A DNA stretch of 64,000 nucleotides. It comes from a virus. Shown in pieces: positions 53,899 to 54,147 of this stretch (within the stretch, counting starts at the first letter, position 1; each line of letters starts with the position of its first letter). Position numbers and translations under genes: made by a program. The DNA lies in IMG/VR virus record IMGVR_UViG_3300029395_000163; one strand, 5' to 3'. A model generated the notes under the pieces. That model did not search any database. It was not told the DNA's origin and worked only from the letters and a program-made list of their open reading frames with translations.

Positions 53899-54147
53899 TT
53901 GATTAAGAAAACGTTTTTATTGGATTTATCTAATATTTGTGATTTACAGAATTTCGTTAACGATTTGAATACGTATGTAATTGCCGATGTAGATGCAATA
54001 GTTGGAAGATATGTCGTGGACGCTAAATCGGTTCTTGGGATGATGTCAATATGCAACAGAAATATTAGAGTTGGGATACATAGTTGTTCGCAGAGAGGTC
54101 TTGAGACATTCGAAGGTATCTGCAAGAAATACGAGGTATCTGAATGA
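53899..54147 (+). CDS. HPr-fold protein of the Crh type (lacks His15, keeps Ser46), 82 aa
   Basis: Aligns to HPr: KTF..., ADVDAIVGRYVVDAKSVLGMMSI matches ..[12 protein letters not shown]. The GIHARPA segment is replaced by NICDLQN. TTG start with an AGGAGAA RBS. Confidence 0.45.
   Translation: MIKKTFLLDLSNICDLQNFVNDLNTYVIADVDAIVGRYVVDAKSVLGMMSICNRNIRVGIHSCSQRGLETFEGICKKYEVSE

Follow-up and report, generated by a model that had tools for sequence, protein, structure and literature searches.

What use could a phage make of an HPr-like protein that has no counterpart of the histidine on which HPr is phosphorylated? The question is raised by a small gene in a 64-kb stretch of DNA (64,000 nucleotides, hereafter the window) from the IMG/VR virus record IMGVR_UViG_3300029395_000163. 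A preliminary description, made from the letters of the window, had found there an open reading frame (ORF) for an 82-aa relative of HPr, the phosphocarrier of the phosphotransferase system (PTS), and had assigned it to the Crh type. The ORF lies where that description had put it, and its product has the predicted fold of HPr, but its sequence points to another assignment: we conclude that the gene is a phage copy of a short His15-less HPr paralogue that is widespread in Clostridia.

53899-54147, plus strand: coding sequence of the 82-aa HPr-fold protein without His15; TTG start, TGA stop (from the ORF list, homologues, the ratio of nonsynonymous to synonymous substitution rates, dN/dS, and the structural model)

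Homology to HPr, fold and constraint

Is the resemblance to HPr real? It could be argued that it is due to chance, in an ORF that is spurious or decaying, because the window protein as a single sequence has a sub-threshold Pfam score and no direct sequence match in the Protein Data Bank (PDB). The search with PF00381 that the preliminary description had proposed gave 13.2 bits (E 0.094) for the window protein alone, below the cut-off of 23, with residues 19-52 aligned in the correct register to profile positions 21-52. With phmmer the single sequence found no match in the PDB, a profile of its phage clade found none among PDB sequences either, and NCBIfam gave no match. Among PHROGs the protein reached only phrog_22910, at E 0.13; just one of 124 family members gave any match there, and no PHROG covers the family.

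The wider family behaves differently. The phage-clade profile retrieved 409 representatives at E <= 1e-3 among 1.8 billion proteins, nearly all of them 75-100 aa long and nearly all carrying G-R-Y-x-V-D-A-K-S-I-M-G, and PF00381 matched 91 of 124 of these family members at E < 0.01. A profile of the 124 sequences found Bacillus subtilis Crh as its best sequence match among solved structures (E 4.6e-11), together with many Firmicute HPr proteins at 6e-10 to 1e-6, and hhalign aligned the family with HPr, Crh and Escherichia coli HPr at 97.7% probability (E 1.7e-12; 69 columns, residues 4-72 against HPr 4-75). The three blocks of similarity picked out in the preliminary description recur in this alignment: K4-T5-F6 falls on K4-T5-F6 of HPr, ADVDAIVGRYVVDAKSVLGMMSI on the corresponding HPr segment, and NIRVGIHSCSQ on AEITISASGAD. 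A clostridial protein encoded on the chromosome (from locus L041; L numbers are our locus handles), which passes the Pfam cut-off with 32 bits, also shares 48% identity (E 5e-18) with the window protein. Bacterial members tested scored 30-34 bits, against 13.2 for the window protein, and the PF00381 cut-off was passed by 9 of 10 family members tested, three chromosomal and seven phage, the latter including two of the three copies in one phage (L172).

Structure prediction gave the same answer. AlphaFold2 with a deep alignment produced a model of high confidence (pLDDT 94.2, pTM 0.84) with the order beta-alpha-beta-beta-alpha-beta-alpha (beta1 2-8, alpha1 13-26, beta2 31-35, beta3 38-41, alpha2 45-49, beta4 56-61, alpha3 65-76). 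In the comparison of such a model with known structures, likewise proposed beforehand, the best 40 Foldseek matches in the PDB were all HPr, Crh or NPr, with TM-scores of at most 0.71 (the top value, for Bacillus anthracis HPr) and a root-mean-square deviation down to 2.6 Å; a model from a shallower alignment gave the same fold matches. The window protein is thus predicted to have the open-faced beta-sandwich of HPr, and the profile alignments identify it as a homologue of HPr and Crh.

We located 13 close homologues in metagenome assemblies, with 62-98% identity to the window protein and on contigs of up to 147 kb. Comparison of the gene with its close relatives gave dN/dS values of 0.014-0.096 at synonymous divergences (dS) of 0.1-1.0, with 2-4 of 82 residues changed. 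Because such low ratios are maintained at dS up to 1.0, and because homologues exist, the ORF is a real gene under strong purifying selection. Together with hundreds of homologues and the profile and fold matches, these ratios refute chance resemblance or a decaying ORF, to which we assign a practically negligible probability. A minus-strand ORF at 53874-54125 was considered as the true gene and rejected, as both homology and dN/dS favour the plus-strand frame.

The shortened active-site turn and the Ser44 face

Two parts of the protein bear on its function, the turn that holds the active site in HPr and the block around Ser44.

53929-53943, plus strand: codons of S11-N12-I13-C14-D15, the shortened beta1-alpha1 turn, with no His or Arg; HPr has S12-G13-I14-H15-A16-R17-P18 there
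54004-54051, plus strand: codons of G36-R37-Y38-V-V-D41-A42-K43-S44-V-L-G47-M-M-S50-I51, covering the beta2-beta3 hairpin, beta3 and helix alpha2
54028-54030, plus strand: Ser44 codon, TCG; equivalent of HPr Ser46, directly ahead of helix alpha2 (model residues 45-49)

It had been proposed that the active-site segment of HPr is replaced in the window protein. His15 is indeed absent, but the change is not a plain substitution: hhalign places a three-residue gap over H15-A16-R17, leaving the beta1-alpha1 segment three residues shorter than that of HPr, and the shortened loop also has no Pro. This is a trait of the whole family, in which 414 of 421 members have a segment of exactly 10 residues and no His or Arg is conserved there (a His occurs in 33 of the 421, at scattered positions). 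Pfam and NCBIfam matches of family members begin at profile positions 17-22, past the active site, and a regular-expression scan found no GxHxRPA motif anywhere in the 64-kb window. Because the His15-Ala16-Arg17 turn is deleted and the residue phosphorylated by Enzyme I has no counterpart, the protein, as read from its alignment, cannot relay phosphate in the PTS.

A histidine does stand elsewhere: His61 (codon at 54079-54081) forms part of an I-H-S-(D/C) motif after beta4, and aligns with HPr Ser64. Could the protein be an active phosphocarrier through another histidine such as this one? The residue is fairly conserved, being present in 66% of the family, but many members have Y, N or E instead, and the position of Ser64 lies at the far end of beta4, away from the face on which Enzyme I docks. 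Nor is there any gene for Enzyme I, EIIA or another PTS component nearby, in phage or bacterial loci, and we consider this reading very improbable.

Within the protein, conservation is highest in the block GRYVVDAKSVLGMMSI around Ser44, which corresponds by alignment to G39...K45-S46-I47-M48-G49-V50-M51-S52-L53 of HPr. Across 421 sequences, S44 is conserved in 99%, K43 in 98%, D41 in 97%, G47 in 96%, A42 in 95%, S50 in 92% and G36, R37 and Y38 in 88-89%, so that the retention of the serine motif that HPr kinase/phosphorylase (HprK/P) targets, as noted in the preliminary description, extends to virtually the entire family. K43-S44-V45-L46-G47 fits the regulatory motif K-S-(I/L/V)-(M/L/F)-G where helix 2 starts, and the helix is almost unchanged from that of Firmicute HPr and Crh (KS-I/V-M/L-G-x-M/F-S-L). 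The same face in HPr is reportedly used by HprK/P in the 1KKL complex. HPr residues I47, M48 and M51, which together with phosphorylated Ser46 and the beta1-alpha1 turn take part in CcpA binding (PMC10287919), are V45, L46 and M49 in the window protein and I, M and F in the family consensus. It is plausible that the Ser46/helix-2 face could serve to manipulate CcpA or HprK/P.

A short His15-less family in Clostridia

To which lineage does the protein belong? Relatives occur in at least 570 species (one genome per species in GTDB), all of them Clostridia among the matches listed, and including Oscillospiraceae, Ruminococcus, Ruminiclostridium and Pseudobacteroides cellulosolvens. In a word-indexed database the family fills more than 7,900 clusters, of which the named ones are called "HPr family phosphocarrier protein" or "phosphocarrier protein HPr". 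Clostridial members of about 75-80 aa (for example from P. cellulosolvens, Thermoclostridium stercorarium, Ruminococcus and Oscillospiraceae) are 40-48% identical to the window protein, share its length class and its 10-residue beta1-alpha1 segment without His or Arg, and have in common with it the core D-x-D-x(3)-G-R-Y-x-V-D-A-K-S-(I/V/L)-(M/L)-G-x-x-S-(L/I), which in the window protein reads D30-V-D32-A-I-V-G36-R-Y-V-V-D41-A-K-S44-V-L-G47-M-M-S50-I. In the search of the 1.8 billion proteins, the phage-clade profile matched members of the bacterial type at E 1e-6 to 1e-7. The window protein differs from the clostridial members in having C52 and a Cys-containing C-terminal helix, F-x-x-I-C-K-K-Y-E-V, and in its Pfam score below the cut-off. 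These similarities assign the window protein to a separate short His15-less HPr lineage found in Clostridia and phages. Our literature search found no paper on the short His15-less clostridial lineage; a paper on T. saccharolyticum covers ordinary HPr and Crh only.

The chromosomal members share a setting. A gene of the UPF0004/radical-SAM MtaB-like cluster is present in 65 of 80 chromosomal loci, and among the 61 loci in which the HPr-like ORF was located the MtaB-like gene is its immediate divergent neighbour in 43 (e.g., L024, 3179-4480). No PTS genes were found near the chromosomal members in the 80 bacterial loci. The window copy has no such synteny with an MtaB-like gene and lies instead between a gene with SH3_3 and 3D domains (hereafter SH3-3D) and small ORFs, in the phage replication block. 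By eye, other neighbours in the bacterial loci (L007-L086) resemble IreB, RuvX, DUF1292, RNase R and TadA. A separate observation concerns a metagenome protein of 146 aa (P0044), whose C-terminal segment resembles, by eye, the helix-turn-helix of sigma-70 region 4; it could be a true fusion or an artefact of assembly or gene calling.

Relatives in other phages

How widely do phages carry this lineage, and had it been seen before? At about 96% identity, the window matches an IMG/VR contig of 125 kb; its G+C content is 35.5%. Its genes specify a DNA polymerase of the DnaE type, a helicase resembling DnaB, a primase, an NAD-dependent ligase, NrdD, a protein similar to guanylate kinase and an RNA ligase, and no tRNA genes were found in it. 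Apart from human faecal phage contigs, nearly all homologues of its polymerase come from phages that infect Firmicutes (Clostridium, Clostridioides, Bacillus, Lactococcus), and the host is likely a gut Firmicute, probably of the Clostridia. The phage clade of the window protein is present on 16 IMG/VR contigs of up to 177 kb, and the commoner motif type occurs on at least 151 further IMG/VR contigs, mostly of 100-270 kb. Some phages hold two or three diverged His15-less HPr-like copies, partly in tandem:

L172, 1731-1967, 4754-5002 and 5007-5249: three HPr-like copies, two of which pass the PF00381 cut-off
L165, 4989-5234 and 5235-5483: two HPr-like copies

Searches of 50,697 deposited phage genomes with megablast (8 kb) and with the window protein in tblastn gave no match. 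With another family member as query, however, six isolated phages of Enterocloster bolteae were found. One of these matters here, Enterocloster phage PMBT24, whose protein WDQ45469 is annotated "phosphocarrier protein HPR" and scores 34 bits with PF00381. PMBT24, a siphovirus of 100 kb whose host belongs to the Lachnospiraceae, is of another lineage than the window phage; its homologue is 31% identical to the window protein over the core and sits right after a cell-wall hydrolase gene. The HPr-like gene goes unmentioned in the PMBT24 paper. In BFVD we found three UniProt virome proteins of HPr fold (A0A8S5S213, A0A8S5PSI8, A0A8S5S9E0), labelled as "PTS HPr component phosphorylation site", "Catabolite control protein A" and "HPr domain-containing protein"; the first of these, from Siphoviridae sp. 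ctCIv11, compares with the window model at a TM-score of 0.92 and 40% identity. The annotated phage HPr-like proteins are of the same His15-less family, come from phage lineages other than that of the window, and are recognised by Pfam, unlike the window clade.

The preliminary description had stated that no phage mimics of Crh or HPr were known to have been described. Annotated entries from PMBT24 and in UniProt do exist; in terms of function the statement stands, as a literature search covering HPr in phages and as an auxiliary metabolic gene, paralogues without His15, and clostridial Crh and HprK found no functional study. The window gene is therefore a diverged phage clade of an uncharacterised His15-less HPr lineage and not a first sighting. 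Enterocloster bolteae with PMBT24 or with the CB457 and CB473 phages, each of which has a homologue, constitutes a cultivable system.

Gene context in the window and in related phages

The gene is embedded among the following features of the window.

50999-58249, plus strand: co-directional block of replication and nucleotide-metabolism genes (Pfam, PHROGs)
50999-52975, plus strand: NAD-dependent DNA ligase (Pfam/PHROGs)
53209-53889, plus strand: upstream gene, 226 aa, with SH3_3 (PF08239) and 3D (PF06725) domains (Pfam)
53888-53893, plus strand: AGGAGA, Shine-Dalgarno-like, five bases 5' of the TTG and overlapping the stop codon of the upstream gene (read from the sequence)
54144-54317, plus strand: downstream ORF of 57 aa, whose ATG overlaps the stop codon of the HPr-like gene as ATGA (ORF list and sequence)
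54314-54505: ORF of 63 aa with CxxC...CxxC, two genes downstream of the HPr-like gene
54457-55239, plus strand: phrog_6721 protein (PHROGs)
55392-55955, plus strand: guanylate-kinase-like protein (Pfam/PHROGs)
55988-58249, plus strand: NrdD (Pfam/PHROGs)

The upstream gene ends 9 bases before the start of the HPr-like gene, and its product has an N-terminus that looks by eye like a signal peptide and is of the cell-wall-binding or hydrolase type. The ATGA overlap with the 57-aa ORF indicates, from the sequence, that the two genes are translationally coupled in one operon. Neither a promoter-like nor a terminator-like site was found adjoining the HPr-like gene; in view of this and of the overlaps of starts and stops, it is an internal cistron of a long co-directional array.

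Another aspect of the locus concerns its history. In the closest relatives (L001-L006, L087-L091), DNA identity is 80-94% over the segment 53190-54600, where the genes for the SH3-3D and HPr-like proteins lie, and mostly 88-97% in the ligase and NrdD regions on either side; the HPr-like protein is 94-98% identical. These figures suggest a segment that is locally older or mosaic, with strong constraint at the protein level.

Similar surroundings recur beyond the window. In all larger phage groups the HPr-like gene lies amid genes of nucleotide metabolism: NrdD is present in 63 of 96 viral loci, and NrdG, dUTPase, ThyA-DHFR, ligase and guanylate kinase are also recurrent. An SH3-3D gene stands immediately before (-1) or after (+1) the HPr-like gene in 32 viral loci, at -1 in the group of the window and at +1 in another group (L137-L158). 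A Hydrolase_2 (SleB-like) gene occupies -1 in PMBT24 and in the group of L143 (in the latter by eye) and lies beside the gene of protein P0020. The hydrolase-type neighbours thus belong to two unrelated families, SH3_3 plus 3D and Hydrolase_2, have N-termini that by eye resemble signal peptides, and sometimes swap order with the HPr-like gene; their recurrence could reflect functional coupling or only an inherited gene slot. Hydrolase-type neighbours lie at -1 in L143-L145, L159 and L168-L169, and are present in L183 (4542-4988) and L186 (2032-2739).

The 260-aa product of 54457-55239 matches phrog_6721, whose function is unassigned, with 264 bits, has no Pfam match and recurs near HPr-like genes (L165, L092-L102). 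In L184 a gene for 204 aa, two positions downstream of the HPr-like gene, shows a faint match to PF02511 (ThyX); 54457-55239 may therefore encode a divergent flavin-dependent thymidylate synthase. Three other phage groups have small Cys-rich proteins of the zinc-ribbon type encoded directly upstream of the HPr-like gene, and in L146 and L155 the HPr-like ORF itself may bear an N-terminal CxxC...CxxC extension. The small Cys-rich or CxxC ORFs are as follows.

L140, 4729-4962: small Cys-rich/CxxC ORF
L104, 4789-5001: small Cys-rich/CxxC ORF
L177, 4778-5017: small Cys-rich/CxxC ORF
L146, 2962-3180 and 3174-3506: Cys-rich/CxxC segments

As ORFs of this kind are common in phages, their presence beside the HPr-like genes may be due to chance.

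Two other proteins of the window deserve mention. The 709-aa product of 19224-21353 matches phrog_1735 (function unassigned) with 873 bits and shares 57-59% identity with proteins from the Bacillus phages Bcp1 and TsarBomba and from Clostridioides phage pCD1602_4. It is conserved very widely: 542 deposited phages have a homologue, among them phages of Salmonella and Klebsiella. At its N-terminus the 752-aa product of 28944-31202 weakly matches RNA polymerase sigma factors in PHROGs (E 1e-8) and, by this similarity, may be a phage transcription factor.

Proposed function

What, then, might the protein do in an infected cell? We regard it as a serious possibility, although one short of an even chance, that its Ser44 face engages the HprK/P of the host, as substrate or decoy, as well as the partners of the host's own His15-less paralogue. 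The window protein would be a small regulatory binding module that acts through its Ser44/helix-2 face and not a phosphocarrier. Its likeliest partner would be the host HPr kinase/phosphorylase, for which it could be a substrate or a competing decoy, and it would also compete for the partners of the host paralogue, with the outcome that carbon and energy signalling of the host is re-set while the phage replicates.

Several considerations weigh against this proposal. The HPr of Vibrio cholerae keeps Ser46 in a species without HprK/P (PMC10287919), so that retention of the residue is no proof that a kinase targets it. The conservation of Ser44 could, moreover, be structural, because the residue directly precedes helix alpha2 in the model. 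No motif of HprK/P or of the canonical HPr active-site loop was found in the window, where the scan was by regular expression only; a phage-encoded HprK/P and a second HPr, as candidate components of the window, were accordingly dismissed on the motif scan. Finally, the chromosomal homologues adjoin MtaB-like radical-SAM and housekeeping genes, not PTS genes, hprK or ccpA, and the phage copies lie amid genes of nucleotide metabolism and of the cell-wall-hydrolase type: neither context points to catabolite control.

These same contexts favour a different explanation, which we hold to be nearly as probable, namely that the protein is an adaptor independent of both the PTS and HprK/P that mimics or replaces the short paralogue of the host and has a partner other than HprK/P or CcpA. 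That partner could be a metabolic enzyme or a component of nucleotide or cell-envelope metabolism, and the conserved Ser could be a structural or contact residue. There is precedent in E. coli HPr, which binds glycogen phosphorylase and Rsd, and HPr complexes with non-PTS partners are among the structural matches (9s8k, 4xwj, 7x7h). Chromosomal members stand divergent from the MtaB-like radical-SAM gene in most of 80 loci and have no PTS neighbours, and the phage genes are neighbours of ThyA-DHFR, dUTPase and NrdD and, in repeated cases, of secreted cell-wall-hydrolase-type genes (SH3-3D, Hydrolase_2). An adaptor would also suit the family-specific residues D30, D32, G36-R37-Y38 and D41, which have no HPr counterpart. 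However, helix 2 keeps the sequence of Firmicute HPr and Crh with hardly a change, including the face used by CcpA and reportedly by HprK/P, and adjacency of phage genes can reflect inherited gene order.

Whichever partner the Ser44 face has, the wider observation is that a distinct His15-less HPr lineage is conserved across Clostridia and is also found, strongly selected, in many large phages of the gut. For Firmicutes, HPr and Crh act as central switches in carbon metabolism. As the lineage is conserved in Clostridia, selected in many phages and sited in nucleotide-metabolism modules, it suggests that phages interfere with HPr-type signalling or with another partner. A more far-reaching idea, which we think rather unlikely, is that the short His15-less proteins form an unrecognised PTS-independent circuit of Clostridia, present in at least 570 species, and that large gut phages have captured them repeatedly (sometimes in 2-3 copies) to reprogram host metabolism. 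If that were true, the phages would act as suppliers of an HprK/P decoy or through control of a partner tied to nucleotide or cell-envelope metabolism, and the window protein would be a diverged viral effector of the clostridial circuit.

Comparison with Crh and HPr

How far does the comparison with Crh reach? Crh of B. subtilis and the window protein share the HPr fold, the absence of His15 and the presence of Ser46, and their second helices are nearly identical (KSIMGLMSL in Crh, KSVLGMMSI in the window protein). Crh has an intact G-L-Q-A-R-P-A loop, with Gln15 in the place of the histidine and Arg17 (and Pro18) kept. Its residues 19-76 are those seen in the alignment of the family profile to the PDB. 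The window protein, in contrast, has lost three loop residues and has neither Arg17 nor the Pro, and the R37, Y38, D41, D30 and D32 of its family are absent from Crh. NF010354, which we take to be the NCBIfam model of the Crh type, gave no match with the window protein, and bacterial relatives reach only about 30 bits with it against an equivalog cut-off of 123. Crh occurs in Bacillales, within the glmR-whiA operon, whereas the window protein is from a phage of a probably clostridial host. Since the loop is shortened and without Arg17, and since NF010354 is missed by a wide margin, the window protein does not, on sequence criteria, belong to Crh as a family. The "Crh configuration" of the preliminary description is accordingly apt for the missing His15 and the kept Ser46, but not for the loop, for Arg17 or for family membership.

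Could the protein nevertheless act as Crh does, being phosphorylated on Ser44 by HprK/P and then binding CcpA, with a change in cre-dependent transcription or carbon catabolite repression? In support of such a co-repressor, Crh is the best structure match of the family profile (E 4.6e-11), the presumed Crh-type model NF010354 is the best NCBIfam match of the bacterial relatives, and the equivalents of Ser46 and of the CcpA contacts I47, M48 and M51 are kept. Against it, Arg17 is absent, the cut-off of NF010354 is missed widely, and no gene of carbohydrate metabolism or related to cre is found in the context. In the CcpA-HPr structures of Schumacher et al., Arg17 is said to be important for the allosteric switch of CcpA. 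The beta1-alpha1 turn, which is part of the CcpA interface (PMC10287919), is three residues shorter. As the turn bearing His15 and Arg17 is missing, a Crh-like role with CcpA is the less likely, and we consider it improbable.

HPr itself is the other known system with which the protein must be compared. The window protein lacks the His15 and Arg17 of Firmicute HPr (PtsH) and is six residues shorter, and D30, D32, G36-R37-Y38 and D41, which are conserved in its own family, have no counterpart in HPr. What it shares with PtsH is the fold and topology, the N-terminal K-T-F, a beta4 of the I-x-I-x-A/S-like type and, above all in terms of conservation within its family, the Ser46 motif.

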